Below are positions 1-25,416 of a stretch of DNA of 64,000 bases, in pieces. Each line of letters starts with the position of its first letter. The stretch's first letter is position 1. The notes under the pieces were generated by a model. That model saw only the letters and a list, made by a program, of their open reading frames with translations, did no database searches and was not told where the DNA came from. The position numbers and the translations under genes were made by a program. This DNA is from Brevundimonas sp. (GTDB lineage Bacteria; Pseudomonadota; Alphaproteobacteria; Caulobacterales; Caulobacteraceae): NCBI RefSeq assembly GCF_003248455.1, contig NZ_QFNM01000008.1, forward strand, positions 3,586-67,585, given 5' to 3'.

Positions 1-277
1 TCGGGGCCTTTAGGTTACCGGGAATGCCGCAGGAGAAGTAAGGTCGCTAGGCTCTAGAACTTCTGTTCCACACCGGCTTCGCCGGCCCTACCATCTGACC
101 CGCACATCAGTGATCCGACTTGGCCGTATCCAGCGCGTGTCCGAAGTGCCGGGCCAATGCGAACCCAATGGTGGCGAGCATTTTCAGTGTTCAAAAGCTC
201 CGATGACGGCTGGACGCTATCAGGTTTGCAACCCGTCGCGCCGTCAAAGGGCTATCCTATCAGCCGCAGCGTATCGG

Positions 278-550
278 TCAGCTTTGACGGGGCTTTCTGC
301 CGGCAGCCAGAGGCTTGATAGCGCCGTGACCCTCGGGTGGAACTGTCAGGAAATCACCGGTCGCAACCCCAAGCACGGAAGCGAGTTTGTCGAGCATATC
401 GACGCTGGCGTTACCCAATTCACGCTCAAGTTCGCTGACGTATGCGCGATCAACGCCTGCATCCGCAGCTAGACGTTCCTGCGAAACGCCGCGCTCGGTC
501 CTAAGCCGCCTTAAATTCCATGCGACCAGCGCGCGCCCATTCATGAGCAA
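278..550 (-). CDS. XRE/Cro-C1 family helix-turn-helix transcriptional regulator
   Basis: 90-aa ORF with a typical HTH_XRE core: LRRLRTERGVSQERLAADAGVDRAYVSELERE. Confidence 0.8.
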   Translation of the reverse strand: MLMNGRALVAWNLRRLRTERGVSQERLAADAGVDRAYVSELERELGNASVDMLDKLASVLGVATGDFLTVPPEGHGAIKPLAAGRKPRQS

Positions 551-615
551 TAAGCGCCAGATTCAACCTCCGTTAAACCACGGGGTATAGCCTACAGATT
601 AAATCCAGGAGGCGC

Positions 616-1368
616 TTGGTGGCTCACTCGAAATCGGCATCAATTCTGACGATCGGCGCCTTCATCGCCCTTGCATCGCCAGCCTCCGCCCAAGCGAATC
701 TCCGAGAAGTTTTGGCTACCCGCCCGTCTGAGGCGCAGAGGCAGATGGTCGAGCAGGTCATCAATATCCAGACAGGTGGAGAACGTTCATCGATCTCCGG
801 GCTCTGGGGTTATGCCCTCGGCGACTCCGCGATCCTCTACTGCGGGTTCCGGTCTGATGCAGCCTATCGCACGACGGGCTTCACGATCGTCATGAATGGC
901 GTGGACCGGGACACGGCAGTTTTCAACATGGGGGAGGCTGCGATGCGCGATGTTGGCTGCGCCCGCCCCGGCTATCGAGCGATCACCGGCGCTCTTCTTC
1001 CAAACGATCCGCTCGGTGGTGTGTGGCTCGATCCAGCGCGAGAACGCATCGAAAGCAACGCTTACAGACCTATAGTCTTCCCCATCGCGCAGGCCAATGA
1101 ACCGGACTGCATGGCGGGGCGAGCGCTGGCGTATGAGGCAATGATACTAGGCAACACGTCAGCGCTTGACGGCTTCACGCCAGCGCAGATGAACGACAAA
1201 ACCAAATTGTTTGGCCTATGCTTTCAAGCTTCCGGTCAGGAGTTCACACAAGTCCGGCTCGGCCAGATCGTGGCGGATGCCGACGCGCGGATGGCGCCGT
1301 TCCGGGCTCGCGCCTACCTAGCTCAAGCATCTATCTATCTGAGCCGCCTGCGGGCTGGGGGATACTGA
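616..1368 (+). CDS. Hypothetical secreted protein
   Basis: 250-aa ORF with AGGAGG at 606-611. The start is TTG 616 or GTG 619. N-terminal signal peptide ILTIGAFIALASPASAQA. No recognisable catalytic motif. Confidence 0.6.
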   Translation: MVAHSKSASILTIGAFIALASPASAQANLREVLATRPSEAQRQMVEQVINIQTGGERSSISGLWGYALGDSAILYCGFRSDAAYRTTGFTIVMNGVDRDTAVFNMGEAAMRDVGCARPGYRAITGALLPNDPLGGVWLDPARERIESNAYRPIVFPIAQANEPDCMAGRALAYEAMILGNTSALDGFTPAQMNDKTKLFGLCFQASGQEFTQVRLGQIVADADARMAPFRARAYLAQASIYLSRLRAGGY

Positions 1369-1454
1369 ATGATGCCGCGTTAGGGCGATGAGCTTAGACA
1401 TTTTGCAGAGTTCAGTGATTCACCGAGGCGCCTGGAGTCGGAGATTTCGAGGGA

Positions 1455-1495
1455 TGGGGGCGGGGGGCTTGGGTCCCCCCCCCCGAAATTTTTTC
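1455..1495 (+). terminator. Intrinsic terminator-like hairpin between convergent genes
   Basis: A G-run/C-run hairpin (GGGGGCGGGGGG..CCCCCCCCCC, C10 tract at 1475-1484) is followed by T6 at 1489-1494. Confidence 0.55.
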
Positions 1496-1499
1496 AGCG

Positions 1500-2081
1500 T
1501 CAGTGGGAGGCTGCCTCCACCCGTTGGATCGCTGACCGGCTGACGCCGTATTGCTTCGCCAAGATGCCGAGGGACACGTTCGCTTTACGCTGATTCAGGA
1601 TCTCGGCCTTCTGGTCCTCTGTGAGGGAGGGCTTGCGGCCTAGGGTCTTCCCCTCTGCCTTTGCTCTGCTCAGTCCCGCGCTCGTTCTCTCAATGAGAAG
1701 GTCACGCTCAAACTCTGCCACAGCGGCGATGACCCCCATCGTCATCTTGCCGGCCGCGCTTGTCAGATCAGCTTGTCCAAGGGCGAGGCAGATCACCCGG
1801 ACATTCATCGCAGTGAAGGTTTCGACGGTTGACCGGACGTCCATTGCGTTCCGGCCGAGGCGATCCAGCTTGGTGACCACGACCACGTCACCAGTCTCAA
1901 GCTTGTCCATTAGCTTGACGAAACCCTTTCGTTGAATGGCGGGGACCGAGCCTGACACGGTCTCCTGGACCACGCGCTGAGGCTCGATCGAGAAGCCCGC
2001 GTTTCGGATCTCAAGGACTTGGTTTTCGGTGTTCTGGTCCGCTTTACTGCAACGACAGTAGGCGTATGTGCGCGATGACAT
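1500..2081 (-). CDS. Small serine recombinase (resolvase/invertase family)
   Basis: The N-terminus YAYCRCSKADQ matches the YARVS-type catalytic Ser motif. DRLGRN motif and a C-terminal HTH (GILAKQYGVSRSAIQRV) are present. Start chosen at MSSRTY (2081), which puts the Ser at about position 12; the ORF is open to 2108. Confidence 0.85.
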   Translation of the reverse strand: MSSRTYAYCRCSKADQNTENQVLEIRNAGFSIEPQRVVQETVSGSVPAIQRKGFVKLMDKLETGDVVVVTKLDRLGRNAMDVRSTVETFTAMNVRVICLALGQADLTSAAGKMTMGVIAAVAEFERDLLIERTSAGLSRAKAEGKTLGRKPSLTEDQKAEILNQRKANVSLGILAKQYGVSRSAIQRVEAASH

Positions 2082-2090
2082 GATCGCTCC

Positions 2091-2195
2091 TGTATCGATG
2101 ACGCGCATCGAAATATGGGGTGTATCGAATTTATATCAAGTCATATTTTCAATACAGGCTTGAGGACCGTATCGGAATCCTCCGATTTCGATACG
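2091..2195. promoter_or_regulatory. res-like recombinase binding region (three sub-sites of GTATCGAA-type half sites)
   Basis: Half sites: TGTATCGAT at 2091-2099. TGTATCGAA at 2121-2129 is paired with inverted TTCAATACA at 2148-2156 (36-bp unit). CGTATCGGA at 2168-2176 is paired with inverted TTCGATACG at 2187-2195 (28-bp unit). The region lies immediately upstream of the recombinase gene, as res lies upstream of tnpR in Tn3/gamma-delta. Confidence 0.45.
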
Positions 2196-2290
2196 CAGCG
2201 TGGCATGCCCGCTGGCGGAGGAAAGCCGTCGATCGCAACCCCATCGCTTTGAGTTTTGGTTTCGCGAGCGGGTTGCCATGTTTCCTAAAA

Positions 2291-3151
2291 TCACCACCGC
2301 TCTGGTTCTGGCTCTAGGTAGTCTTGTTCCCATAGTCCAAGGTCGAGCCGGTGGATGACGTCTTCAAAGTCCGTTGGCGTGAGGGTGTTCGCGGTGAACT
2401 GGAGCTCGAACTTGAAGTTCTCATCCTGCTGGTGGCCGTCACCGCGTCGCACGTCGGAGTTTGATCCCCACTGCAAACCTACCGACACAGAGCCCTCGAC
2501 CACAAAGCGGAGACGGTCGGGCGCTTGTTGGTGAACTGCCACATGGTCCACCCAAACGCTTTCGATGGAGTAGTGGCTGGCGATCTCGGCAATGGCGTCG
2601 ATGGTATCAAAAATGAAGGTGTTCAGAGCTTCGTCGTTGACCTCCTCTGCGAGCGCTTCGATCACTTCGCTCCGGGTGGCTTCGGCTGCGTCAATCATCG
2701 CAGCGAAAGCGTCGAACGATGAGCCCACAAGCGCCACCACTTCCGCCTCCTCGCCCACCTGAGTGGTTTCTCGAAAGTGCACACGCTTGCTGAGCTCAGT
2801 CAGCGCTGCTTTCGCTGTCTTAACAGGCTGATCGAGCTCGACTTGAAGCCGCTCAGCCACAAAGGTTGGGTCCAAACCTGCTCTAGCCCAGTAAGCTAGC
2901 CTCTGCGCTTGAGTGGGGCGGTTTTGACCATCCACCAGCTCAAAGCCAGGCGTCGCCATGACAGGCTCGTCTGGGGCAAACGCGTGGAGCGTCATGTAGG
3001 TGACCTCCCTCATAGCTACGGCGAAGAAGTTGCCGCGAAGGGGGCCTTGGGTCTGCGCTGAAGCCAGTGCCTGGTCGAGAGCGAGGCGCGAGAAGTCGTC
3101 CGGAAGGTGCGGCTTGATCTCATTGGCTTTGTGCGTGAGCTTGTCCCACAT
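2291..3151 (-). CDS. Hypothetical acidic protein, third gene of the Shedu-like operon
   Basis: 286-aa ORF. Its ATG lies 2 nt after the stop of the upstream 155-aa gene. No motif I can assign. Confidence 0.6.
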   Translation of the reverse strand: MWDKLTHKANEIKPHLPDDFSRLALDQALASAQTQGPLRGNFFAVAMREVTYMTLHAFAPDEPVMATPGFELVDGQNRPTQAQRLAYWARAGLDPTFVAERLQVELDQPVKTAKAALTELSKRVHFRETTQVGEEAEVVALVGSSFDAFAAMIDAAEATRSEVIEALAEEVNDEALNTFIFDTIDAIAEIASHYSIESVWVDHVAVHQQAPDRLRFVVEGSVSVGLQWGSNSDVRRGDGHQQDENFKFELQFTANTLTPTDFEDVIHRLDLGLWEQDYLEPEPERW

Positions 3152-3153
3152 CG

Positions 3154-3621
3154 CTATCTCGCCAAATCCTGTTTAGCGATGGCGACGATCTTTTGCTGGC
3201 TGCTGGCGATGGCACCATAGCCTTCGTCCAACTCCTCGAACATGCTGTTCCGGCGCTTGTGCAGCTCTCGCCATAGCGCGTCGATTTCATCTGTGACATG
3301 GGGATCAAGCAGCCATGCTTGACCTGCAATGCTGCGTCTCACGTCATCGCGCGCCTTCCGATAGCGCTCCTTTAAGACCGCCTGGCGGTCATCCGGCAAT
3401 TCGTGTCCGCTGATTTCCGCTTCAAAGTGTTCGCCATGCCAATCCAGCATGTCGTGCAAACCTTCGAACACTACGGTGTAGGCGGCGGCTTTCTTCTCCC
3501 ATGAGCGCTCGCGGAAGAACCTCTTGAGCGTGAGGCGCATCGTCAGAGACGCTGCAAGCCAAGCGCCACCCAGCGTGAGGATCGCTTGCACAGCGAGCTG
3601 GATAATCTGCGCTGTGGTCAT
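3154..3621 (-). CDS. Hypothetical single-pass membrane protein, second gene of the Shedu-like operon
   Basis: 155-aa ORF with an N-terminal TM helix (IIQLAVQAILTLGGAWLAASLTM) followed by a charged helical domain. Its start overlaps the upstream stop (ATGA at 3618-3621). Confidence 0.6.
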   Translation of the reverse strand: MTTAQIIQLAVQAILTLGGAWLAASLTMRLTLKRFFRERSWEKKAAAYTVVFEGLHDMLDWHGEHFEAEISGHELPDDRQAVLKERYRKARDDVRRSIAGQAWLLDPHVTDEIDALWRELHKRRNSMFEELDEGYGAIASSQQKIVAIAKQDLAR

Positions 3622-4694
3622 TCAGCTTGCCCACTGAGGTTTGTGACGATGAACCGTGCCCGACAGAGCAGTTCGTCGAACGTGAGGATTTCTGGCGAGC
3701 GCACGTTGCGCCGATAGAGCTCGAAGCAGGCGATCTTATCGTCATTACCCGCCATCTCTGAGGAATTTCCAACGACTAGAAAACTGCGGGGCTCCACTGA
3801 GTAAGCAAGGTCCGCCGTGTCGTTGCCCGCCGTGTCTTTTAGCACTTCTCGAAAGCGGCGGCGGGCGAAGTCGAAAGTGGTCTTCTGCACTTGCGTGACA
3901 GCGTTCGACACCTCGCTGCTTACCCCATAGCAACCGGGACGGTAGGGGTCCGCTGTCTGCCGAAGGAGGGCGGTGCTGTCCTTCTTGATCTCAACAAACA
4001 CGAACTGGCTGACTTGCGCTCGCGTCCTCATCAGCGCATCGGCAGTTTTCCCCGCGCGATCAAACTCGTTCCCTGTGGTCTTTGCCATCAGCGTGTCGGA
4101 CACTTTGCCCAACGCCACGTAGTGGAGCCCGTGCCCAAAAATCCACGGATTGGCTTCGAAGAACGCCTGCCAGTCGAGCTCAGTTTGCCCCTGTCCCATT
4201 CGCCGCTCAAATTCGTCCAGCGCCGCGCGTTTTGCCGCCACCGCGTAGATGTCCTGGTGGAGGTCAGGTGACTCCGCTAGCTGAGCGATTACCTCTCCCG
4301 CCTTGTTGGAGGTCAGGAGACTTGTGAGCGCCGCGAGACTCACGTTCTCCAGCGACACCTTTGTCTTCCGCGCATCGCCGAAATCGAGGGTGGCGATGAT
4401 GCCCAAGAAATCGCGGATTTGCGCCAGTTGGAAGTGGGTGACTTGGACCCGGCTATCCTCCCGCCAACCATAGGTTTTGTGGTGAGTGAGCTTGATGAGC
4501 GCAAAGGTGCCGAAGTCGGACTTGTCCTTCACCCAAAACGCTTTGACCGCCAATTTACAGCGGGACGTTACGTCGATCTCGCCGATGGGCTCTTCGCTTT
4601 CCCCGCAGATCGTCGCGTAGGAACCCTTGGCTCCGGGGTGAACATACAGTTGATCGGGGGTGTAGTTTGCCAAGTATTCCGCGTCGTCACTCAT
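3618..4694 (-). CDS. Shedu-like (DUF4263-type) PD-(D/E)xK nuclease, candidate anti-phage effector
   Basis: 358-aa ORF. The C-terminal half carries WQAFFEANPWIFGHG, then GKTADALM ... FVFVEIKKDS (a D...ExK nuclease core), then QVQKT. The N-terminal ~170 aa has no recognisable motif, consistent with the variable domain usual in Shedu. Confidence 0.65.
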   Translation of the reverse strand: MSDDAEYLANYTPDQLYVHPGAKGSYATICGESEEPIGEIDVTSRCKLAVKAFWVKDKSDFGTFALIKLTHHKTYGWREDSRVQVTHFQLAQIRDFLGIIATLDFGDARKTKVSLENVSLAALTSLLTSNKAGEVIAQLAESPDLHQDIYAVAAKRAALDEFERRMGQGQTELDWQAFFEANPWIFGHGLHYVALGKVSDTLMAKTTGNEFDRAGKTADALMRTRAQVSQFVFVEIKKDSTALLRQTADPYRPGCYGVSSEVSNAVTQVQKTTFDFARRRFREVLKDTAGNDTADLAYSVEPRSFLVVGNSSEMAGNDDKIACFELYRRNVRSPEILTFDELLCRARFIVTNLSGQAE

Positions 4695-5114
4695 GGCGGT
4701 AGCGTATCGCTGTTACCCTCGGCTTGGCTAGCGTCACTCAAGTGCGCTCAGTGGAGTTTTGTCCGCCGCCACGGATGTCCGCCAACCACCCATTGCTGAG
4801 CTTCGACATGTCAGGTTTTGGGCGGGGGGCGTGCCGCGTTGGTGCCGATGCCTGTCTTTAGTCTCGTCTAACCGATCGATTGGGATCGGTGTTGATGCGT
4901 GAGGACGCAGCCTCGATACCCGAGTTGCCCCTCCGCACGGAGGATGCGTTGCGTGAGCACGCGACATTTTGAATGTCGCCCCGAGCGCCACCTTAAATAT
5001 CGCAGTCTAGCGGATTGGGTGACCCTCGTGGGGGCCTCTGGCCTTTCCGCGCCGGACGCCAGTTGGAGTCGGCAGCCTGAGCCGGCGCGGCAATGCGACC
5101 TAAACCAGCTCTGG

Positions 5115-5251
5115 TTCTGCGTTCTGCGTTTCTGCGCGGGTTCAGGGGTAGATTTTCGGCCGAGAGAAGATTTTCAGGAGGATCTGAAAGTTCAGAAAAT
5201 GCCCTAAGACTCTCGACCTAACTCTCACTCGCAGAAACGCAGAAACGCAGA
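5115..5251. repeat. 21-22 bp inverted repeat made of 3+3 TCTGCG(T) iteron-like units flanking a ~93 bp AT-richer core
   Basis: The left arm TTCTGCGTTCTGCGTTTCTGCG (5115-5136) is the reverse complement of the right arm CGCAGAAACGCAGAAACGCAGA (5230-5251), apart from a 1-nt indel. The core contains GATTTTC twice and the palindrome TCTGAAAGTTCAGA. The repeat abuts the stop of the primase-helicase gene. Confidence 0.8.
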
Positions 5252-8200
5252 TTAGGCCGCCAGCGGCAGCATCACGTCGTCGCCCTCGACCGCGCTGGCG
5301 CGGATCACCACCGACGAGACCTTGCCCAAGCCGGGCACGTAGTCGAACGCCGTGCGCTCCTCGCCGTCCGCCCGCCTGTAGGTGATGAGATGGCCACGGG
5401 CACGCAGTTGTCCCGCCAACGCCTTGGGGTTCAACGCGCCGCCGGAGAGCTCTTTTAGCGACGACATAGGCACGACGTAGGCATCCTCACCGAACTTGGT
5501 CAGGTGCGCATCCAGACGCCATGCGTCGGCCTTCCCGAAGCCACCGGAGACATCGTCCGGGACGCGTCCACCTCGGCCCCGCAGAAGGGTCTCGAACAGC
5601 GTTTGGATGGTGACGTCTTCGGAGTTGGCTGGCGTCAGCGACGACTCCTGCGCACGACGCCAGAACTCGGCAATCGTCTCGTCCAGAGACTGGCCGAGAC
5701 CGAGGTCATTGTCCGAGGGGATCAGTCCGGCGGTCTGTGCGATCTTACCGGCGAACCAGAGAAGGGCGGCGATCCGGGCTGCCCGAACCACTGCGGGCGG
5801 CGCGCCGTCACCGGCGATCTCGACGGCCTTGTGCTCCACATCCTGCCAGAACTCATCCCGCTCCCTGTTCAGGCCCTGCGCAATGACGCTGGACACGAAT
5901 GCGAGCCCGGCGTGCCCGGTGTTTTGGAAGGCGGCCTCGATTCCGTCCATCGTCTCGCGGGGAAGCGGGCTCGTCGCCTCGCAGTCGATCTCGACAACGC
6001 GGGCGCCCAGACCAGTGGTGGCGGCGACCCCGGCCGAGCGGATTTTGCCCATGATCTCGTGCTCGCCGGTCAACGTATACATCCCGCGCCATGTCCTCGC
6101 TTTGCGCAAGGATGCGGAGCGCGTCAGACGGTCGTTGCCGGCGTTGCCGGAGCCTTTGTAGATCATGAGTTGGAGCTTTCCACCGTCCACGAGGTTCGTC
6201 TCGTCGAACGCGTAGCCGGCGCCGGTGCCCATGGCGAACCTGGCCTCCACGGCGTTGTCGGTTCCGTTCAGAGGGCCATAGAGGCCCGCACGCGCCTTGG
6301 TGCTTCCCCAGACCGCAGCTTGCAGTTTCGCCGAGGTGGACTTGCCACGGCTCGTCCGGGAGCTCCACGCCACGAAGAAGCTGTCCTGACCGCACATGTC
6401 CACCAAAACGCTGGCGAAGCTGATCAGAGGCGCGACGCGAAACTGAAGGACGTCGGTTCCCCAAGCGGCCGCCGTTGCGGCCGTCCAGCCGTCGAGGGTG
6501 CCGCACTGCTCCTCGCCGGAAGGCATGGACTCATGGGCCATTTCGACCGGACGGTTCACGCCCTTCGGCGTCGATCCCCAGGGGCTCAGGAACAGTCCTT
6601 CGTCACGCCACCCGCCGTGGTCGAAGATGGCGATTGGGCTGCTCGGCGCGATCTCACGGGCCAGCCGGACGCACTGTGCTTCGCCGGCCTCCGTCATCCC
6701 GACGCCGGCTTCCCGGAGCCGCATGCGGAATTCGCCGCCGAAGGCGCTGAAGATGTCCCTCGCCGACACGTCGAACTGCGAGGTGTTTCCATCCTCGTCC
6801 AGCGCGGCGATCCTCAGGCCTCGCTTGCCAGCCTGATCCACATGCTGGGTGCCGGCCACGATCGTCCACGGCGTCCACAAGCGCACTGGGCCGTCGCCCC
6901 GGTCCAGGTAGACCCACGGGCGTCCATCGAACTGCCTCATGCTGAAGTCGCCGTGCGAGGGCGAGGGGAGGGGAAACTGCCCCTGCAAGCGGGTCGCTTC
7001 GGTTGCCGAGATCGGCGCCGTGGCGGGTTCGGCGGAGGGCGTCATTTCCCTCCGGACGCGTTTCTCGATCAGCTTGAAGTCGGCGGCGGCGACCTGAGCC
7101 TGCTGCCGCGCCTCCTTCAGCGCACGAGCCTTCTCCAGTTCCCCGAGGTCTGTGCACAGGATGTTGCGGATCGCGGTCTCCACCATCTCGGTGGAGGCCT
7201 CTCTGGTCAGCGGGATAGGCGGCATCGGTGCGGAGGTCTCGATCAGGGCGTTGAAGTCGTCATCCATCAGCACGGCGGCGGGGAACCACTGCGCGTCTAT
7301 CATCGCCCCCAGGTGGTCGAGGCTGGTGAGATCAGCGCAAGAATGATGCTGGCAGCGGATGGCGAACCTCGACGTTTTGGAGCCGTCCCCAGCATTCATG
7401 GCCAGACAGGCCATATCGTTAGCGTCGCCGGGGTTGCTATGGCGGTGGTCGTGAGGGCACTCGATGACGAGCCCCAAGCCTATGCGATCGCGAACCCGTT
7501 CGGGGGCGAACTCTTCGATCACGTCGGCCATTTGAAAGCCCTCAGCCTTGGCCTTCGCCCAGGACGACAGAACCTTCCCAGCGGTGGTCGTCGGGCTGTT
7601 TGTCGCGCGCAGGCCACCGTTCGGGCCGGAGGGCAGCAGCGTGCGCCAGTCGAGAAGATCGCCACCGACGACGATGGACTCGAACGCCGCACCCGGCGCG
7701 TGGGAGGGCAGGTAAAAGCCGCGAGCGACGTCTTCAGCCGCTCGATCGTGCATCACCGCCAAGATCTCTGACATCGCGCGGGGAAGCGCCGGATATGCAT
7801 TGATGCCGTCACGTTGCAGCGCCCCCTGTTCAGCAAGGACGAAGCGCTCCTTGAACGGGAACAGCACGCGGAACTTCGACACCGGCGAGTGGCTCACGAT
7901 CAGGGTTGGGCCAGCGGTTTCGTCGGCCTTGGCGGTGATCTGTGCGGTCGTCGCCACTTCCTCGACCATTGAGCGCGCGAGGTAGGCCTGGACGAGGCCA
8001 TCAGTGATCTCTTCGGAGCGGCCGTTCGCGATTGCCCATTGAACCAGAGCATCGCAGAGCACTTTCCGGCTGGTGGAGCCGTGACTGTGAGTGGTGTGGA
8101 TCACCGCCATGTGGCCGGATGCGATCACGCGCTCCACGAGGGCGTCCCGACCCACTCCCGAGTCGATGTCTAGGGCGAGGAAACTGAGCGATTTGACGGC

Positions 8201-8425
8201 AGTTGCGCGACGCGGACCTTCCACACAGTCGCCCAAAACAACGGCGTGCCCGTTCTTGTGGGCCATCTCCTTGTGGTCGGTGAACATACGGATGGCGGCG
8301 CCCAGCGTCGTATCGATCGGCTTCCAGCGGGTGCTGTTGACGCCGTTGGCGCGGGTGATGGTGATGGGCATGTTGAGCCGAGGATCGGCTTCGTCGAAGC
8401 CGTTCAGCACCGTGATTTTGGACAT
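5252..8425 (-). CDS. Bifunctional primase-polymerase (AEP-like) / SF3-type helicase replication protein (DUF927-like)
   Basis: 1057-aa ORF. N-terminal acidic motif LALDIDSG and VIHTTHSHG. Cys/His cluster CPHDHRH...CQHHSC. Walker A SSRTSRGKST and Walker B YAFDE. The architecture resembles P4-alpha-like replication proteins of integrative elements. Confidence 0.7.
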   Translation of the reverse strand: MSKITVLNGFDEADPRLNMPITITRANGVNSTRWKPIDTTLGAAIRMFTDHKEMAHKNGHAVVLGDCVEGPRRATAVKSLSFLALDIDSGVGRDALVERVIASGHMAVIHTTHSHGSTSRKVLCDALVQWAIANGRSEEITDGLVQAYLARSMVEEVATTAQITAKADETAGPTLIVSHSPVSKFRVLFPFKERFVLAEQGALQRDGINAYPALPRAMSEILAVMHDRAAEDVARGFYLPSHAPGAAFESIVVGGDLLDWRTLLPSGPNGGLRATNSPTTTAGKVLSSWAKAKAEGFQMADVIEEFAPERVRDRIGLGLVIECPHDHRHSNPGDANDMACLAMNAGDGSKTSRFAIRCQHHSCADLTSLDHLGAMIDAQWFPAAVLMDDDFNALIETSAPMPPIPLTREASTEMVETAIRNILCTDLGELEKARALKEARQQAQVAAADFKLIEKRVRREMTPSAEPATAPISATEATRLQGQFPLPSPSHGDFSMRQFDGRPWVYLDRGDGPVRLWTPWTIVAGTQHVDQAGKRGLRIAALDEDGNTSQFDVSARDIFSAFGGEFRMRLREAGVGMTEAGEAQCVRLAREIAPSSPIAIFDHGGWRDEGLFLSPWGSTPKGVNRPVEMAHESMPSGEEQCGTLDGWTAATAAAWGTDVLQFRVAPLISFASVLVDMCGQDSFFVAWSSRTSRGKSTSAKLQAAVWGSTKARAGLYGPLNGTDNAVEARFAMGTGAGYAFDETNLVDGGKLQLMIYKGSGNAGNDRLTRSASLRKARTWRGMYTLTGEHEIMGKIRSAGVAATTGLGARVVEIDCEATSPLPRETMDGIEAAFQNTGHAGLAFVSSVIAQGLNRERDEFWQDVEHKAVEIAGDGAPPAVVRAARIAALLWFAGKIAQTAGLIPSDNDLGLGQSLDETIAEFWRRAQESSLTPANSEDVTIQTLFETLLRGRGGRVPDDVSGGFGKADAWRLDAHLTKFGEDAYVVPMSSLKELSGGALNPKALAGQLRARGHLITYRRADGEERTAFDYVPGLGKVSSVVIRASAVEGDDVMLPLAA

Positions 8426-8496
8426 GGGGGAGCCTTTTCCGACACCGCTGTCTCAGTGCCGATAATGTTGTAGACGATGGTTGTAGGGGTAGTGGG

Positions 8497-8901
8497 CTAG
8501 AGGCTCAGCAGAGCGTTCGTGACCTTGTCGATGACGAGGTCAAGGATGAGCGCGCCGGCGTGCGGCACTGTTAGGGGAATTATGGTGCCGTCGATCTTCA
8601 CGGCCTTACGGGTGAAGCGCACGGGGATCGCGACGGTCGGAGGAGCTTCTTTCATAACCAGGATCGCGGTGGTGATCCGGTTTTTGCCTTCGTCACGGGT
8701 GATGAACCATTGCGGGTTCGTTTCACGGGCTGCTTCGGCGATCCCATCGACAAAGGCTTGAAATCTTCTCGGCGAAGCGATGGCCGTATGCACAGGCCAG
8801 TCGCCGAGCGGATGGTCGAAGCATCGCTCATCGGCCATAAGGAGAGCAGCAGTTCGGAAGTTTTCGCTAAGCGCGGCGTATTGAGCAGCCTTCTGGGTCA
8901 T
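8497..8901 (-). CDS. Hypothetical protein
   Basis: 134-aa ORF. Its start overlaps the stop of the upstream AlpA-like gene (TGATG). Confidence 0.5.
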   Translation of the reverse strand: MTQKAAQYAALSENFRTAALLMADERCFDHPLGDWPVHTAIASPRRFQAFVDGIAEAARETNPQWFITRDEGKNRITTAILVMKEAPPTVAIPVRFTRKAVKIDGTIIPLTVPHAGALILDLVIDKVTNALLSL

Positions 8902-9092
8902 CAGGCTTCCAACGGGGCCAGTTTTTCAGCGATCCAGTTCTCGACCGCCGCCAGGGACCACAGCGGTTCCGAATAAGCGCTCCAGCGCAGATAGGCTGGA
9001 AACTTTCCTTTCGCGGACATCCGCTCCACTGTGCGGCGCGTCAGGCCGTTCAGACGCCAGGAGAACTTCTCGAAGGGCACCAAGTCGATCAT
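8901..9092 (-). CDS. AlpA/excisionase-family HTH DNA-binding protein
   Basis: 63-aa ORF. LNGLTRRTVERMSAKGKFPAYL ... WSLAAVENWI fits the AlpA/MerR-type excisionase pattern. ATGA overlap with the upstream gene. Confidence 0.6.
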   Translation of the reverse strand: MIDLVPFEKFSWRLNGLTRRTVERMSAKGKFPAYLRWSAYSEPLWSLAAVENWIAEKLAPLEA

Positions 9093-9415
9093 GCCGAGCC
9101 TCCGTTCGAAGCGGCGAGACGGGTCGCGGCTTGTCCATCCCCGACCTTCCCGTGGATGAGACGCGCGGGTTTGGCGTCCAATTCTTTGGTGGGTGCGTGG
9201 AAATAGTAGGGCCGGTCGGTGCGCAGCCGATCCAGCCAGTCTCCAACCTCCTCACCTGACAGCGTTTCGACTTCACCGGCTTTGGTGAAGCGGAAGTAAG
9301 GCAGGGCACGGTTGGTGGCATCGGTCAGTGCCTCGATGCGGAGGCCGGCCCCGCTGGCGGCGACCGCCAGGGCGGCCATGACGGCGTAAAAGATTGCGGG
9401 CGCGGGTGCGCTCAT
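9089..9415 (-). CDS. Hypothetical protein with an N-terminal hydrophobic segment
   Basis: 108-aa ORF, the first gene of the 9415->5252 gene string. Confidence 0.45.
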   Translation of the reverse strand: MSAPAPAIFYAVMAALAVAASGAGLRIEALTDATNRALPYFRFTKAGEVETLSGEEVGDWLDRLRTDRPYYFHAPTKELDAKPARLIHGKVGDGQAATRLAASNGGSA

Positions 9416-9648
9416 CCTGTTGGCTCCAAGGATCGATTTGTATGGGAGTGGGAAGTGTCAGAACGACGAGACATCCTGATCGGTCGAGATTGGCGACACC
9501 GGCCCCGCCGGCATCACTGGATTAACTCGAGTATGGGTCCTGTATGCTTGCGAAAGGCAGCCATGTCAAGAAAAAGGGTTGACCTTTCTTAAAAACTGTG
9601 AGTCGCCCGCTATGGGTGGCTGTCCAGAATCAGGCTGGGCCTACCGAT

Positions 9649-9770
9649 CTAGGCGTTCACGATCATCAGATCGGACAGCCGTGTCGTGTATCTAGCCGAT
9701 CGATTGTTCGCCCGCGTGCTTCACCGAGCCGCGACACGGATGCCGCCGGGTCGGATGTCAAGCTGGCGAA
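9649..9770 (-). pseudogene. Truncated 3'-terminal remnant of a second umuC-like gene
   Basis: The minus-strand translation reads ...RPGGIRVAAR*STRANNRSARYTTRLSDLMIVNA*. The intact UmuC C-terminus reads RPGGLPKVTAWSTRANNRSPRYTTRLSDLMEVRA*. An in-frame TGA replaces the Trp. Similarity fades upstream of ~9770 and another stop follows. Confidence 0.7.
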
Positions 9771-9848
9771 CATGACGGCCAACTGCTCGTCTATGCGGGA
9801 GCGTTCGCAGCCGCTATTCCTGATGGAACAATCTACTGGTGGTTATAG

Positions 9849-16702: not shown

Positions 16703-17076
16703 CACACGTCGGTCCTGACTAGGGCGGCGATCATGGCCCAAACCTCGGTCTCTTCGGTCATCGGCTGGGCGGGCTGGTTCGCCGGCTCCAGCCACCAGGT
16801 GCCGTCTTTCTCGGTCAGGACGGCCAGGACGACATCGCCGTGAAGGAAGGCGACGCAGACCTTTCCGGTTCGGGGCTCGCCGGCGGTGTTCACGACCAGA
16901 ATGTCGCCCGAATGGATGCCGCGCGACTTCAGTCCGTTACCCTTGACGCGGACGGCGTAACGTTGAGGTCGGCGCAGTTCCAGCAGGTCGGCCAGGTCCG
17001 GCACGGCCTCGACATGATCCTCCGCCGGCGACTGGAAGCCGGTGGTGTCGTCGCCCTGATATGCCCTCACGCCCAT
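16702..17076 (-). CDS. UmuD-like S24-fold protein lacking the Ser/Lys catalytic dyad
   Basis: It aligns with E. coli UmuD from GFPSPAADY (here GFQSPAEDH) onward. GDSM is replaced by GNGL, and TVKKL by VLAVL. Start at MGVRAY (17076) is preferred; the ORF is open to 17142. Confidence 0.75.
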   Translation of the reverse strand: MGVRAYQGDDTTGFQSPAEDHVEAVPDLADLLELRRPQRYAVRVKGNGLKSRGIHSGDILVVNTAGEPRTGKVCVAFLHGDVVLAVLTEKDGTWWLEPANQPAQPMTEETEVWAMIAALVRTDV

Positions 17077-19764: not shown

Positions 19765-20319
19765 GTGGATTTTGGCTCCAAAACGTGGACGCAATCGATG
19801 ACCAATGACTGGCAGGAAGAAGCCTTCGCCAAATACGTCGAGCAACAAAAACGTCTCGACGCCCTTCAGCGACAGAGGCTCGCCGAACGAGGAGAGGTTT
19901 TAATCGAACTCGTCGGATCGGACGATGACGGCGCGCCGAGTGACCCGCAGTTCCAAGCGGAGCTTTCCCCCATGGCGGATACGTTGGGGGCTAACGGGGT
20001 CTCGTATTCGCAGACGATGATGACGTTCGACGCAGCCGATGGCTTGGGTCATTCGCTGCCAGAGTTCACGGTGCTTTTGAAGACCTTAGGCGCCCCCGCG
20101 ATCGCCGCTGTGGCGGGGGTGGCTGGCACGTGGGTCGGCGGACGGTTGGGTCGGAAGGTTCGCCTGAAGATTGGTGATTTGGAAGCAGAGGGACGGTCGA
20201 TTGAAGAGGTCCAGGCTCTGCTGATCCTAGCTACGGACTATGCTGCGGAGAAGGCAGCGGAGAAGGCAGCGGAGAAGGGTGAGGTAGCTGAAACATCGTC
20301 GAAAGAGACGGAAAAATAG
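19765..20319 (+). CDS. Hypothetical protein with a Gly/Ala-rich hydrophobic helix and a C-terminal AEKAA repeat
   Basis: 184-aa ORF. APAIAAVAGVAGTWVGGRLGRKVRLKIGDLEAEGRSIEEVQALL, followed by an AEKAAEKAAEKGE tail. Confidence 0.5.
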   Translation: MDFGSKTWTQSMTNDWQEEAFAKYVEQQKRLDALQRQRLAERGEVLIELVGSDDDGAPSDPQFQAELSPMADTLGANGVSYSQTMMTFDAADGLGHSLPEFTVLLKTLGAPAIAAVAGVAGTWVGGRLGRKVRLKIGDLEAEGRSIEEVQALLILATDYAAEKAAEKAAEKGEVAETSSKETEK

Positions 20320-20422
20320 GCTACATACAAACTGCACACATTTGACACGCGGGCAGCCAAATAATTCAATAAAAACAACGCCAGAAATTGGCGTGTAGGC
20401 GGCCCGTCGCCGCCTACCAAAC

Positions 20423-20462: not shown

Positions 20463-20477
20463 CGCTCTGGTCGCCGG

Positions 20478-23400
20478 TCAGAAGCGGAAGCTGGCCCGCA
20501 GCAGCAGCGAGTAGCGGACATAATCCTCAAGCAATTCGGCGTCGCCGGTCAGAGACAGCATCCCCAACTCGTTGCCGAAGTTCAGGCGGAAGCCCAGGAT
20601 CGGCCCGCCCCCTTCGATGGCGTCCGGCGACAGGATGAAGTCCGGGCCGCCGCTGGCGAAACGGGCGATGGTCTCGCCCGCGTCCACCGAGATGTTCTGG
20701 CGATAGCCGACGCGCAGTTCGGGTCGGATCCAGCCGTTGCGGCCGAAGCCGTAGCCGATGTTCATCGCCGCCACAGCCGAGAAGATGTGGCTGTCGCGCG
20801 AATCGATGTCCAGATCGAAGCCGTCGCCGCCGCCGCTCTCGCTGCGCGAACCTTCCGACAGATGGAAGTATTCGCCGTACAGTTCGGGGCGAATGTTGAG
20901 CCGGCCGAAGTTGCGCTCGTACGAGGCGCCGCCCGCCACCGCGGCGGTCCAGCCGTGCCAGTCGGACTTGTTGTTCAGATAGACGCCGCTGGCGACCAGG
21001 GAGCGGTCGGCGTTGAAGCTGGCGTAGCCGCCCGCCGCGCGGGCCCAGGTTGTCCAGTACTGCCCCTGGGCCCGCCAGTAGAGGCCCAGTTCCAAAAGGT
21101 TGGCGGACAGGACCTCTTCGGCCTCGGCCTCCGGGTCCTTGATGTCGGACGAGGTGAAGGCGGCCGAAATGCCGATAGCGCCCAGGCCCGTGCCCTTTTC
21201 CACGCCGCCCGCGACGCCGAAGCCTTCCGAGCGGAAGCCGTAGGAATCGGTCTTGTCCTTGTCGGCGTAGAAGTTGATCTCCTGCACCCAGGCGCTGGTC
21301 TCGCCTGGGGCGGCGACGGCGTTGCGGCCGGTCAGGGCGCGGGTCACGGCGTCGACGCCGGCCGCCAGCGACATCAGCGGTCCCCCCGAATGGTCGGGCA
21401 GCATCTGCTCGTAGGCGTCGATGAAGCCGTCGCGCGTCGTCTGCGACAGGAACAGGTTGCGCACCGTCTCATTGTCGCCCAGGGCGGCGTAGACGGCGTC
21501 GTAGGCCGAGGCTTCGACGGGGATCAGATCGGCTTCGGCGGCCGAGCGGCGGCGCGCGTCGATATAGACGGTGTTGGCCGCCTGATCGACGCCGCCTTCG
21601 ACCACATAGAGATAGGGGGAGCTGCCGCTGAGCAGGCTCTGGTCGATCTGGCCGACATTCAGCGAACCGGCGGTGATGATGTCGAACCGCTCGGGCCCCT
21701 CCAGCAGCGAGGCGAAGCGCACGCCCAGGGTCGAGCCGGTCGCCAGGGTGGCCGCGCCGCTGACGTTGAATCCGCCCGAGGCGCTGGTGGCCGGGTCAAG
21801 AGTGACCAGCAGCGTGCCTTCTGCCCCCACGTTCAGGCTGGTGACGCCGACCACGCCGGTCTGGGTCGCGTTCAGCGTGCCCTTGCCGATGTTGATGTCC
21901 AGCAGGCCGTCGGCGTTCTTGATAGCGCCGGTGACGACCGCTCCGCCGCTGATGTTCAGCTTGTCCGCCCCGGCGCCGAAATCGATGTCGCCATTCACGA
22001 CGCCGTTCTCGATGTCGAGCGTATCGGCGCCCGAGCCCAGCTTGACGGCGCCGACGATGGCCGGCTCGCTTGCGTCTGGAACGCCGTCCTTGTCGGTGTC
22101 GGTCGCCGTGCTGTCCGAGGCCGCCGGTATGCCGTACTGACGCAGGGTCACGCCTGAGGTGTTGGCCGACAGGTCGATGGCCGTGACCGTGCCGTCCACG
22201 GCCGTCGCGTCGGTGCTGGTGGGCGTCAGGGAGCCGACAATGGACCCGGCGTTGTTCAGCTGGTTCAACGTCCCCGACTGATCGCGGATGACGACGGCCG
22301 AGCCGTGGTCGCCGCCGAAGGACGCCACCAGATTGCCGGTGTTGGTCAGGGAGCCGACATTGGCTCCGGCGCCGATCAGGATGCCGGTCGCGCTCTGGGT
22401 CTGGCCGCCCGAGGCCACGGCCTGGATGGCCCCCGAGTTGACGATGGCGGGGGCGGTGACGCCCGATCCGATCCAAAGGCCGGTGGCGTTGGCGTCAACG
22501 GCGGTGGAGGACACGCCGCCCTCGTTGCGCACGCCGCCGACGACGTTGACGGCCTGGCCGCCTGCGACGCCGAGTTGAACCGCACGGGATTCGACGCCGG
22601 AATAGAGGCCTGACGCCGTGATCGAGCCGCGGTTGATCAGGCCATAGGCCGCATCGCCCGAGCCCACGGCGCCCAGGGTCACGGCCTGGGTGGTCGATCC
22701 GACCAGCAGGGCCGGCGCGCCGCCCAGCGAGGTGATCGAGGCGGCCGTCTCGCTGGCGTCGGGGATGCCGTCGCCGTCCCGGTCGGAGTCGTCGCGGTTC
22801 TTGACGCCGTCGCCGTCGTCGTCCTCGTCGCCGTTCTTGACGCCATCGCCGTCGTCGTCGCCGTCGATGCCGGCGGCCGAATAGGCCAGGGCTTTATCGA
22901 ACAGGACGCCGCCCGCCACATTGGCGCCCACGCGGACCGCCGGTCCGCCCTGAAGCAGGTCGTCGTCGGCGTCCAACTCGTCCAGGAACAGGGTCGTGGC
23001 GTTGTCGTAGGAGCCCGTGGCGGGGCGCGCCGGCGGCGGGGTGGTGTAGCGATAACCGGTGGCGACCACCGACGAATGGATTTTCAGCGCGCCGCCCACG
23101 TCGCCTTCGATGGAGACGCCGCTCGCATTGGCGCCCAGGGCCGAGATGGTGCCGGCCAGATCGACGTTTCCGGTGATCGGACCCGTCGTGCGAATGGCCG
23201 CAGCGTTGTCGCCGGTGGCGCGGATCGTGCCCAGGCTCTGCAACTTGCCGTTCAGGCCCGTCTCGACCGCCAGGCCGTAGGAGTTGGCGCCCTCGACCGT
23301 GATCGCGCCGGTGCTTTCGACCAGGACGTCGCCGGTGAAGGGCGAGGGGCCCGCGACGCGTACGCCGTACCGCCCCGTGCCGGTCGCGAACGGACCGTCC

Positions 23401-23780
23401 AGGTCGCCGTCGCCGTCGGTATCCTTGACGTCGGCCGTTTCCTGGGCGTCGTTGACGGTGATCGAGCCGCCGACGATGACCGATCCCGTATTGCCGCCGT
23501 TGACCAGCAGGCCGGTCGAGCCGTCGGCCGACTTGTCCATCGTGATCGAACCGCCGCTGTCCAGATCCACCGTGTGGTTGGAGTCCAGCGTCACGGCGGC
23601 GCCCGAGGCCACGGCGACGCTGCCGCCGCTGGCGATGCGGATGTTGTCCGGGCCCGTGCCGGTCGCGTTCGACGTCTGGATCGGGGTCGTGCGGGCGGTT
23701 GAGACGACGATCTCGGCCTGAGACCCGGTGGCGACCATCAGAGGGGCGATCGCCACGGCGGTCGCGAGCAGAATACGCAT
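20478..23780 (-). CDS. Autotransporter outer-membrane protein (passenger with acidic Ca-binding-like repeats + C-terminal beta-barrel)
   Basis: Start at MRILLATAVAIAPLMVATGSQA (signal peptide). Gly/Thr/Ala-rich beta-helix-like passenger. DGDGVKNxD / DxDGDG repeats. C-terminal barrel with alternating aromatics ending ...LLRASFRF. Confidence 0.85.
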   Translation of the reverse strand: MRILLATAVAIAPLMVATGSQAEIVVSTARTTPIQTSNATGTGPDNIRIASGGSVAVASGAAVTLDSNHTVDLDSGGSITMDKSADGSTGLLVNGGNTGSVIVGGSITVNDAQETADVKDTDGDGDLDGPFATGTGRYGVRVAGPSPFTGDVLVESTGAITVEGANSYGLAVETGLNGKLQSLGTIRATGDNAAAIRTTGPITGNVDLAGTISALGANASGVSIEGDVGGALKIHSSVVATGYRYTTPPPARPATGSYDNATTLFLDELDADDDLLQGGPAVRVGANVAGGVLFDKALAYSAAGIDGDDDGDGVKNGDEDDDGDGVKNRDDSDRDGDGIPDASETAASITSLGGAPALLVGSTTQAVTLGAVGSGDAAYGLINRGSITASGLYSGVESRAVQLGVAGGQAVNVVGGVRNEGGVSSTAVDANATGLWIGSGVTAPAIVNSGAIQAVASGGQTQSATGILIGAGANVGSLTNTGNLVASFGGDHGSAVVIRDQSGTLNQLNNAGSIVGSLTPTSTDATAVDGTVTAIDLSANTSGVTLRQYGIPAASDSTATDTDKDGVPDASEPAIVGAVKLGSGADTLDIENGVVNGDIDFGAGADKLNISGGAVVTGAIKNADGLLDINIGKGTLNATQTGVVGVTSLNVGAEGTLLVTLDPATSASGGFNVSGAATLATGSTLGVRFASLLEGPERFDIITAGSLNVGQIDQSLLSGSSPYLYVVEGGVDQAANTVYIDARRRSAAEADLIPVEASAYDAVYAALGDNETVRNLFLSQTTRDGFIDAYEQMLPDHSGGPLMSLAAGVDAVTRALTGRNAVAAPGETSAWVQEINFYADKDKTDSYGFRSEGFGVAGGVEKGTGLGAIGISAAFTSSDIKDPEAEAEEVLSANLLELGLYWRAQGQYWTTWARAAGGYASFNADRSLVASGVYLNNKSDWHGWTAAVAGGASYERNFGRLNIRPELYGEYFHLSEGSRSESGGGDGFDLDIDSRDSHIFSAVAAMNIGYGFGRNGWIRPELRVGYRQNISVDAGETIARFASGGPDFILSPDAIEGGGPILGFRLNFGNELGMLSLTGDAELLEDYVRYSLLLRASFRF

Positions 23781-24092
23781 TCGGTAGAAACCCCTGGTGG
23801 TCACGCACAACGGTACAGGCGACCCCTTAGCAGGGTCCGCGCCAGCCTTCCTCAAGTTTATCGAATTTGAGGCGAATGCAAGGCCGCGGGAGCCGACGGG
23901 CCCGTCTATGACGCGACTGGCGTTCTGCGAAACGCAAGCTTTACGGCGAATACGGAGGGATTTGGCCCGGCCGCTCTTGAGCTTTGCCACGACCGGGTTT
24001 ACGGGCGTCGCACGGTCTTGCGCCGCGTCCACAACGACGCATCCAACGAACCCCTCCGGCGTTCGACAGCCCAGACCAGACGAGAACGCCCC

Positions 24093-25343
24093 ATGAGCAT
24101 GACCGACCTCGACGTCCAGGAAAGCGAACTCCGACTGATTCCGGGGCTGGACGTGGAAGTCGCCGATACGCTGCGGGCGCTGAAAGCCGCGGCGATGGAC
24201 GAGCGGCCGCGCCTGGTGGACACCACCATGCTGTTCGCGCCCCGTTCGGGCGGGGTGAAACGGTATCTCCTCTCCAAGAAGGCCTGGATCGAGGCCAACC
24301 GGCCGGGCGTCAGCCATTCGCTGATCGTGCCCGGCGCGCGGCACAAGGCCGGGGCCGACGGCGTCGTGCGATTGCGCGCGACCAAGCTGCCGTTCGGCGA
24401 CGGTTATCGCTGGCCCACCTCCGTCAAGCGCTGGAGCGCCTGGGTCGCGGCCATGAAGCCGTCGATCATCGAGGCCGGCGACCCCTATACGCCGGGGCAG
24501 GGCGCCTTGGAGGCCGGCCAGAGGGTGGGATGCCCCGTCGTCGGCTTCTGCCATTCGGACCCGGCGGGCCTGGCCGCCCTGCACTTCGGCGAATGGGCCA
24601 AGAAGCCGGTCGAGAAACGCTGGGCGCGCCTGTTTTCGCAATTCGACCGCGTCGTGTCGCCCAGCCGCTTCATCGCGCGGCGGCTGGAAGAGGCGGGCGT
24701 CGACAATATCGTGATCCGGCCCCTGGGCGTGGAGATCGACACCTTCCGGCCCGAGCGCCGCGACCGACAATGGCTGCTGGACCGGCTGGGTCTGGACCAG
24801 GACGCGCGCCTGTTGTGTTTCGCCGGGCGCCCGGCCAAGGAGAAGAACGTCGACGTGCTGATCGAGGCGGTCCAGAAGCTGGGTGCGCCCTATCACCTGG
24901 TGCTGGTCGGCGCCGGGTCGGGCATGCCGGACGAGGACCGGGTGATCTCCCTGCCTTACGAGACCGATCCCCGCGCCGTGGCCAAGATCATCGCCAGCTG
25001 CGACGCCTTCGTCCACGCCAACGACAAGGAGCCGTTCGGCCTGATCGTACTGGAGGCCATGGCCTGCGGCCGGCCGGTCGTGGGCGTCAACGCCGGCGGC
25101 GTGGCGGAGACGGTGGACGAGACGGTCGGCCAGCTGGCGGCGCGGGCCGAGGCGGCGGACTACGCCGAGGCGGTCCAGGCCCTGTTCGCGCGCGACATCG
25201 AAGCCATCGGCCGGGCGGCGCGCGAGAAGGCCGTCAGCCAGTTCGCCTGGACCCGGGTGTTCGAGGATCTGTGCAATGTCTATGGCGAATTGACGGGCGA
25301 GGCCGCCTTCATGAGCGCCGACGCGGAACTGCATCTGCACTGA
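24093..25343 (+). CDS. GT-B fold glycosyltransferase (family 4-like)
   Basis: APRSGGVKRYL N-terminal motif and EPFGLIVLEAMACGRPVV (E-x7-E region). Start chosen at MSMTD; the ORF is open from 24018. Confidence 0.8.
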   Translation: MSMTDLDVQESELRLIPGLDVEVADTLRALKAAAMDERPRLVDTTMLFAPRSGGVKRYLLSKKAWIEANRPGVSHSLIVPGARHKAGADGVVRLRATKLPFGDGYRWPTSVKRWSAWVAAMKPSIIEAGDPYTPGQGALEAGQRVGCPVVGFCHSDPAGLAALHFGEWAKKPVEKRWARLFSQFDRVVSPSRFIARRLEEAGVDNIVIRPLGVEIDTFRPERRDRQWLLDRLGLDQDARLLCFAGRPAKEKNVDVLIEAVQKLGAPYHLVLVGAGSGMPDEDRVISLPYETDPRAVAKIIASCDAFVHANDKEPFGLIVLEAMACGRPVVGVNAGGVAETVDETVGQLAARAEAADYAEAVQALFARDIEAIGRAAREKAVSQFAWTRVFEDLCNVYGELTGEAAFMSADAELHLH

Positions 25344-25416
25344 GCGCGGGCGGCCAGGCATGCGCCGCCCGAGCCGGCGGGCGCGCCACTTCTTCTAGCG
25401 ATGTCTGGAAAAGAAG

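Follow-up and report, generated by a model that had tools for sequence, protein, structure and literature searches.

A Shedu immune nuclease gene coupled to a membrane-anchored partner and a PF18165/PF18166 protein in a mobile Brevundimonas cassette

Shedu is among the common single-gene defence systems, and how its nuclease is silenced and triggered is still debated. We analysed a stretch of 64,000 nucleotides from Brevundimonas sp. (contig NZ_QFNM01000008.1, positions 3,586 to 67,585; hereafter the window), in which a Shedu nuclease gene (gene 1) is followed by two further genes, here called genes 2 and 3. A first-pass annotation, made from the sequence alone, had described the three as a translationally coupled set. 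The reading frames are indeed as it described them, three minus-strand open reading frames (ORFs) joined by a stop/start overlap and by a 2-nt spacer, and the two junctions, ATGA and TAG-cg-ATG, uphold the coupling. The features of this cassette are the following:

3618..4694, minus strand: gene 1, Shedu (SduA) immune nuclease, 358 aa (PF14082, PADLOC SduA)
3154..3621, minus strand: gene 2, 155 aa, N-terminal transmembrane anchor plus four-helix bundle (ORF, AlphaFold2 model)
2291..3151, minus strand: gene 3, 286 aa, member of the PF18165+PF18166 family (Pfam, PADLOC)
3618..3621, minus strand: ATGA stop/start overlap of genes 1 and 2 (gaATGAcc), read from the sequence
3152..3153, minus strand: 2-nt spacer between genes 2 and 3 (TAG-cg-ATG), read from the sequence
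4695..4799, minus strand: conserved leader travelling with the cassette (homology between the window and locus L095)

The ratio of nonsynonymous to synonymous substitution rates (dN/dS), calculated against related cassettes, was 0.03-0.05 for the Shedu gene, 0.09-0.23 for gene 2 and 0.08-0.15 for gene 3. Because these values are low, the three are real genes under purifying selection and not chance ORFs. A 557-nt non-coding leader lies upstream of the Shedu gene, and both partner genes lie downstream of it. No terminator-like or promoter-like site was found on the coding strand inside the cassette by a promoter scan, which is weak evidence; the promoter and the ribosome-binding site are presumably inside the 105-nt leader at 4695..4799. 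A search of NCBIfam with all three proteins returned no match, and neither did an Rfam scan of window positions 1-10000.

Judged by its sequence, gene 1 encodes a true Shedu/SduA nuclease belonging to a known subtype, as the first-pass annotation had proposed under the name DUF4263/Shedu. With 100.5 bits (cut-off 27) and E=1.4e-28, its residues 170-343 match positions 2-159 of the 159 in the Pfam profile PF14082 (SduA_C), and the protein is also matched by 17 PADLOC SduA models. The best of these, PDLC00394 (E=3.3e-86), spans residues 42-354; the N-terminal region is therefore likewise of a known Shedu subtype, and the Shedu identity extends beyond the nuclease core. The protein resembles its family in layout, with a sensor-type N-terminal region of ~170 residues followed by a C-terminal PD-(D/E)XK core. 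The motifs that had been pointed out are present where they were placed: WQAFFEANPWIFG at aa 175-187, D219 in GKTADALM, FVFVEIKK at 231-238, and QVQKT within VTQVQKT at 266-272. The PD-(D/E)XK constellation is intact (D219, E235-x-K237, here E235-I-K237, and Q268). Gene 1 aligns to the solved B. cereus SduA structure 8ti8 (E=6.6e-10), with the GKLVDFL, IEIK/VEIK and AVTQV positions conserved, and it aligns as well to the solved E. coli SduA structure. Its plasmid relatives carry the RefSeq label "Shedu immune nuclease family protein".

The 155-aa product of gene 2 had been called a single-pass membrane protein, and both the Kyte-Doolittle profile and the AlphaFold2 model agree with this description. 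There is one N-terminal hydrophobic helix, with a Kyte-Doolittle maximum of 1.7 at residue 6 and a transmembrane anchor at about residues 6-28. In the model (predicted local distance difference test score, pLDDT, of 81) the helices run over residues 3-71, 77-100, 107-120 and 127-154, and the hydrophobic helix is continuous with the bundle. Since a basic cluster, RLTLKRFFRERSWEKK, follows the N-terminal helix, the bundle is predicted to be cytoplasmic. Fold searches returned generic helical bundles only, none at E<=1e-3. The protein belongs to no Pfam, NCBIfam or PADLOC family, and a PADLOC match to typeIV_DinG (E=0.011) was weak and was taken as chance; in the PHROGs collection it matches phrog_17948 (E=5e-7).

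The idea that gene 2 represents a tiny orphan family was partly rejected. A word-indexed search yielded a close subfamily of 14 clusters, whereas an exhaustive profile search recovered a superfamily of 1,202 representatives at E<=1e-3, with 412 at E<=1e-10. Among the 150 superfamily matches listed, nearly all are proteins of 150-190 aa that match over their full length, and 118 of 149 members sampled have an N-terminal hydrophobic segment. An alignment of 66 superfamily sequences contained no stretch conserved enough for back-translation, tblastn searches of plasmids with two remote members gave no match, and we found no annotation for the superfamily anywhere. Remote members were located on plasmids of Vibrio and Photobacterium, on four IMG/VR contigs and on a Salmonella phage-plasmid, and no Shedu gene or gene 3 homologue was near any of them. 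At these loci (L163, L153, L164 and L159-L162) they are solitary small genes in phage or plasmid DNA; on the Salmonella phage-plasmid pCFSAN000929 (L163, 3986-4495) the relative sits between a minor head protein gene and a DUF2213 gene, a moron-like slot in the head module.

The close subfamily is placed differently. In six out of six independent contexts (the window, L095, L093, L094, L158 and L157) it lies directly 3' of a Shedu gene, the two being joined by a 4-nt overlap or separated by a gap of at most 66 nt, and the ATGA overlap is kept in L095-L098 and L158. The check that had been proposed for the 155-aa protein, linkage of its homologues to Shedu elsewhere, therefore came out in favour of the linkage.

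The 286-aa product of gene 3 is acidic, as had been stated (pI 4.55), and has no cysteines. It is not, however, the motif-less orphan that it was taken for, because it is a member of the named family PF18165/PF18166. Both domains are present in order and above their gathering scores, PF18165 (pP_pnuc_1) at residues 15-142 (73.1 bits against 26.3, E=2e-20) and PF18166 (pP_pnuc_2) at residues 157-267 (94 bits against 25, E=9.5e-27), under the family label "predicted pPIWI-associating nuclease". The PADLOC model Aga_Nuclease (PDLC02413) matches over its full length (positions 2-265 of 267, E=5.5e-70). The protein also matches phrog_29508 (E=4e-41), yet tblastn with gene 3 as query had no match in the phage collection. 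The family spans Proteobacteria, Bacteroidota and Cyanobacteria and comprises at least 203 clusters, and the 120 members listed are 261-332 aa long and contain only the PF18165 and PF18166 domains, with no fusions. The gene 3 protein is annotated from a Brevundimonas metagenome-assembled genome (MAG).

The name of this family fits gene 3 poorly, being supported neither by genomic context nor by predicted fold. In the AlphaFold2 model (pLDDT 88.6, predicted template modelling score 0.79), a helical N-terminal part is accompanied by a helix of 50 residues and by four long antiparallel strands. Foldseek searches of the PDB and BFVD gave no match at E<=1e-3, no nuclease fold and no PD-(D/E)XK or RNase H core; the best template modelling scores, ~0.2, were to NTF2/ARC6-like domains. 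The family profile, compared with solved structures, had no PDB sequence match. The four-stranded sheet carries an invariant loop, LQWGSNSD-VRRGDG (residues 226-239), and across the family (alignment A1) H125, H193 and D233 are invariant and D188 and D270 nearly so. Judged from the strand topology of the model, the loop and these five residues should lie together at one pole of the sheet, and might make up a new site for catalysis or ligand binding.

For the genomic context we used 80 gene 3 loci fetched through the LQWGSNSD and D-E-L-A-x-H motifs, a sample from which divergent members linked to prokaryotic Argonautes (pAgos) may be missing. In a Pfam census of 142 first and 139 second neighbours at these loci, PIWI, DinG and SduA_C were not among the recurrent families; the most frequent domain was an XRE-type helix-turn-helix, in 6 of 139, and nothing recurred more than 6 times. 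BLAST clustering of the neighbours gave only antisense shadow ORFs and families present in at most 8 loci, and phmmer found neither a homologue of the window Shedu nor one of the 155-aa protein beside the 80 loci. A recurrent operon partner of gene 3 across the 80 genomes was therefore rejected. No PIWI gene flanks the window cassette, and eight well-annotated gene 3 contexts have none either. Where its surroundings are well annotated, the gene is monocistronic or follows small unknown genes, in regions rich in integrases, resolvases, methylases or toxins.

Two known nucleases suggested by the name were compared with gene 3 and rejected. The first was bAgaN of the long-B pAgo systems, where a defence effector works with a separate sensor protein, and to which the PADLOC label "Aga" suggested a link. 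EcbAgaN, from the long-B pAgo nuclease system BPAN, is a RecB-like protein of 390 aa whose N-terminal domain is helical and whose PD-(D/E)XK domain has a D-EVK motif (PMC10620215, PMC13535254). Gene 3 differs from it in length, motif, fold and conserved residues, it has no PDB sequence match, and there is no pAgo at the locus. The second was the nuclease of the pPIWI-RE triad, which likewise forms a three-gene operon with overlapping termini and a predicted role in defence. In that triad the restriction endonuclease (REase), DinG helicase and pPIWI-RE genes stand in strict order, and the nuclease consists of a helical domain, a Zn-ribbon and the REase domain (Burroughs et al. 2013; PMC3702460). 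Gene 3 lacks the Zn-ribbon and the REase fold, contains no cysteines and is not flanked by DinG or PIWI; its neighbours are the membrane protein gene, Shedu and a resolvase. We consider gene 3 distinct from both, because neither the AlphaFold2 fold nor the profile searches show a match. It remains a full-length two-domain member of PF18165/PF18166, with no Argonaute or PIWI gene beside it or at the 80 loci sampled, and the pairing with Shedu is confined to its closest clade.

Other members of the family have other company. On the A. tumefaciens plasmid pAtK224b (L156, 2298-6402) a co-directional run consists of a restriction endonuclease gene, a 190-aa gene, the PF18165/6 homologue and a caspase-family gene joined by a 4-nt overlap; an AbiE toxin-antitoxin pair adjoins the run, as does a Gabija-like UvrD/ATPase pair. 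The family may thus partner with different effector enzymes. In L088-L092 and L006, a 124-aa gene and a gene 3 homologue (65% identity) occur without Shedu, an arrangement conserved in metagenome contigs and a Phenylobacterium MAG. Next to them, in divergent orientation, is a gene for a protein of 820 aa whose N-terminus is HSDR_N nuclease-like and which has AAA-type matches.

The three genes of the window move as one block. Homology between the window and L095, a locus in an unrelated Brevundimonas genomic background (L095:4928-7316), runs over window positions 4799..2309 at 92% identity and ends there, that is, from ~105 nt above the Shedu start to the end of gene 3. Since these edges are sharp, the mobile unit is exactly the three genes plus the ~105-nt leader, and the linkage of the three genes as a unit, which had been proposed from their spacing, is supported by their transfer between two backgrounds. 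The identities of Shedu and gene 3 to the window copies fall together in the related cassettes, at 95.5/94, 92.7/78.5 and 72/64%.

The cassette is also modular. Shedu, the membrane protein gene and gene 3 occur together in the window and in L095-L098, and Shedu with the membrane protein gene only in L093, L158 and L157. In L094 these two are followed by an unrelated nuclease-like gene (L094:6510-7079; 189 aa), with matches to Holliday-junction-resolvase/endonuclease PHROGs and a D...EVK motif. In L086, an in-frame deletion of ~135 codons has left a 20-codon remnant of gene 2 between Shedu and gene 3, keeping its first six codons, the ATGA overlap and a TAG-cc-ATG junction. In L087 there is no membrane protein gene, and Shedu overlaps gene 3 directly by TTGA. 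The closest gene 3 clade (64-94% identity) is thus linked to Shedu in three distinct arrangements, with gene 2, with the L086 remnant and through the L087 TTGA overlap; the proposed check on the relatives of the 286-aa protein is positive for this clade and negative for the family at large, which is free-standing in the sampled loci. Two further observations concern cassettes of this Shedu clade. Downstream of the Shedu at L104 lies a 259-aa gene (L104:5140-5919) with a weak match to a CoiA nuclease domain, and the Shedu of the marine contig L093 (4930-5999) has a frameshift near its 3' end that puts the last 30 residues in another frame, the membrane protein gene being intact. The frameshift is either an assembly error or an early pseudogene.

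Both partners are therefore individually dispensable to the persistence of the cassette in nature, and this bears directly on the suggestion that the three genes act together as a joint machine. An obligate system, in which a sensor, a membrane component and a second effector are all needed, would account for the tight coupling and co-mobility of the genes and for the purifying selection on all three. It also has a precedent in KELShedu, a two-gene, experimentally validated Shedu (KELA and KELB) whose nuclease depends on a partner (PMC12577705). KELA is a 12.6-kDa soluble dsDNA-binding protein encoded upstream of the nuclease gene, with a 3-bp spacer; activity requires it, and it binds to the nuclease at the N-terminal domain (PMC12577705). 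However, variants without gene 3 (L093, L094, L158, L157) or without gene 2 (L086, L087) keep a conserved Shedu, save for the frameshift in the L093 copy; close Shedu relatives are solitary; and gene 3 occurs without Shedu at 65% identity (L088-L092, L006). Since the partners have disappeared independently of each other and Shedu has stayed, we regard an obligate three-part machine as highly improbable, and this part of the first-pass annotation is not sustained.

The KELShedu precedent also changes two other points. Close relatives of gene 1 stand alone, but the statement that canonical Shedu is a single-gene system is no longer a strict rule, because the two-gene KELShedu has been validated (PMC12577705). 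And a small, required partner that acts on the Shedu N-terminal domain counts in favour of interplay between Shedu and the partners found here. The likeness consists in a Shedu nuclease with a tightly linked small partner gene. In KELShedu, as described, that gene is upstream, whereas here both partners are downstream and dispensable, one being membrane-anchored and the other a 286-aa PF18165/PF18166 protein.

According to a statement cited within PMC12577705, over-expression of Shedu is toxic. One or both partners might then serve self-protection, restraining Shedu in uninfected cells, for instance by sequestering it at the membrane, with no part in sensing or killing. Gene 2 has no enzymatic fold, and both partners are translated after Shedu in a fixed stoichiometric coupling, as such a role would suit. 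Most of this Shedu clade nevertheless has no such partner, and a co-evolved inhibitor would be expected to be indispensable, yet both partners have been lost repeatedly. We therefore consider self-protection quite unlikely.

A more serious alternative is that the operon is a stack, in which Shedu, a membrane protein of the superinfection-exclusion type and a single-gene PF18165/PF18166 system share a promoter with no interplay. Genes of the gene 3 family are monocistronic or have unrelated neighbours, with no recurrent partner among 281 neighbour ORFs; the gene 2 superfamily occurs alone in phage and plasmid settings, the head-module slot of the Salmonella phage-plasmid included; and other Shedus of the clade have unrelated genes downstream, some of them nuclease-like (189 aa in L094, 259 aa in L104). 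Defence genes cluster on this element anyway, because a pair resembling a restriction-modification (R-M) system of Type III is found there too. Against mere stacking, the gene 2 subfamily is found only behind Shedu (6/6), mostly with an overlapping stop and start, the L086 deletion is in frame and preserves both coupling junctions, L087 has re-created a direct overlap of Shedu and gene 3, and the trio is transferred as a block whose homology ends abruptly on both sides. Stacking is the main rival reading, and we think it rather unlikely.

The reading that we favour, at a probability of roughly 55%, has Shedu as a core to which two modulators are optionally added, gene 2 being a Shedu-dedicated membrane anchor or gate and gene 3 a separable, co-expressed module. 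The nuclease is a genuine Shedu carried as cargo on a Brevundimonas integrative mobile element, and the two coupled accessory genes would have been acquired downstream of it in one alphaproteobacterial Shedu subclade. By analogy with B. cereus and E. coli SduA, whose structures and biochemistry are published, Shedu would be the autonomous core, a PD-(D/E)XK DNase whose N-terminal domain senses invading DNA. Gene 2 may bind Shedu and position or gate it at the inner membrane, where foreign DNA enters; the earlier suggestion of a membrane-tethered or membrane-sensing Shedu is thus plausible. Gene 3, from a widespread and usually free-standing family of mobile elements and defence islands, may be a second defence or regulatory module, co-expressed with Shedu through the coupling. 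The partners would be modulators rather than obligatory subunits, because either one has been lost on separate occasions from cassettes whose remaining genes are still under purifying selection. The analysis shows what the genes are, that they are coupled and move together, how often they are linked and that either partner can be missing; the physical interactions and the functions of both partners we infer. In a neighbour-joining tree the partner-bearing Shedus all fall in one subclade, with both partners on both sides of its deepest split; the distribution appears to fit an ancestral three-gene cassette with repeated loss.

Several points weigh against this reading. The physical interaction between Shedu and its partners is something that we infer, and the neighbour-joining tree carries no support values. 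The Shedu relative of A. vitis (71% identity) stands alone, and among 49 metagenomic Shedu relatives gene 2 accompanies 1 and gene 3 accompanies 0. Remote members of the gene 2 superfamily are found in phages and plasmids without Shedu. The gene 3 family is free-standing or variably neighboured in 80 genomes and 21 plasmids, and gene 3 therefore probably works without Shedu. Finally, the synonymous divergence (dS) between the window and L095 is 0.55 for Shedu and 0.18-0.19 for genes 2 and 3, a step that indicates that the cassette is itself a mosaic. Nucleotide identity between these two copies is 77-90% over the greater part of the N-terminal two-thirds of Shedu, and it reaches 94-97% from the 3' end of Shedu through gene 2, the most divergent part of the cassette being the N-terminal half of Shedu. 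These values hint at recombination, or at faster turnover of the sensor domain, inside the cassette.

A bolder version would make the PF18165/PF18166 protein a non-nuclease, portable sensor or adaptor with a new fold that serves varied effectors, and gene 2 a sensor of DNA entry that licenses Shedu at the inner membrane. The effectors would be Shedu here, the restriction endonuclease and the caspase-family protease on pAtK224b, and Argonautes in the name-giving loci. We hold this version to be unlikely.

Set against published systems, the locus is a Shedu with a partner set new to the literature and not a new kind of system, because the published census and the literature show Shedu but neither partner. 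Gene 1 matches the SduA family and the PADLOC subtype models over nearly its full length with the catalytic residues kept, and its position on a mobile element near R-M genes is as reported for many Shedu genes (bioRxiv 10.1101/2023.08.10.552793). That census of Shedu neighbourhoods names R-M, BREX, transposons and prophages and lists neither partner (bioRxiv 10.1101/2023.08.10.552793), whereas here Shedu heads a coupled three-gene cassette. Our literature search found no paper on a membrane, accessory or PF18165/6 partner of Shedu beyond KELShedu.

The cassette lies between the replication gene and the recombinase of the element, as had been noted, and the same mobile element is present in three metagenome assemblies. 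The two flanking genes are:

5252..8425, minus strand: 1057-aa DUF927 primase/helicase-type replication protein of the mobile element (PF06048, E=1.9e-22)
1500..2108, minus strand: serine recombinase/resolvase, 3' of the cassette (PF00239, E=4e-35)

The promoter scan gave the resolvase gene its own promoter-like site at 2139-2112. On the other side, just past the DUF927 stop, there is a perfect 15-nt inverted repeat, TTCTGCGTTTCTGCG / CGCAGAAACGCAGAA, at 5122-5136 and 5230-5244 (also 5238-5251), with 93 nt between the arms. It lies 430-550 nt upstream of where Shedu starts and is not part of the travelling 105-nt leader. The repeat is built from tandem GCGTTTCT units and could be an operator, iterons or an origin of the element.

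Farther along the element, an N6_N4 DNA methylase gene (E=1e-32; 9849-11696, plus strand) overlaps by 4 nt a gene for an 849-aa ResIII/DEAD helicase-type protein (11693-14242, plus strand). The two probably form a Type III R-M pair carried by this element as well, at a distance of ~5 kb from the Shedu cassette. A gene for a UmuC/ImpB-type translesion polymerase (IMS, IMS_C, DUF4113) lies at 15455-16795 on the minus strand. Near 21 kb the GC content steps from ~0.59-0.62 to 0.68-0.70 (window ~20000-25700), and two tRNA-Asp genes are found at 25417-25493 and 25576-25652; the step and the tRNA-Asp genes probably mark the element's right-hand boundary or attachment region. No Pfam family matches a 4.9-kb ORF found there (25361..20478, 1627 aa), which in such GC-rich sequence could be a shadow ORF.

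That a Shedu gene should be found on a mobile element, or with accessory genes as such, will not surprise a specialist. What is useful and testable is the deletion series, the Shedu-exclusive gene 2 subfamily and a family annotation that rests on neither context nor fold. The label of Argonaute-associated nuclease is doubtful for PF18165/PF18166, a family of at least 203 clusters, and this matters for the interpretation of PADLOC or InterPro hits. The searches also identified a superfamily, large and uncharacterised, of small helical-bundle proteins that have a membrane anchor and are encoded by phages and plasmids. The natural series of cassettes, with Shedu alone, with the membrane protein, with gene 3 or with both, and with the clean deletion in L086, is a ready-made genetic dissection of any effects that the partners may have on the localisation, range or toxicity of Shedu. 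If the adaptor and DNA-entry roles considered above were true, the cassette would be a membrane-coupled, multi-input Shedu unlike any characterised system.

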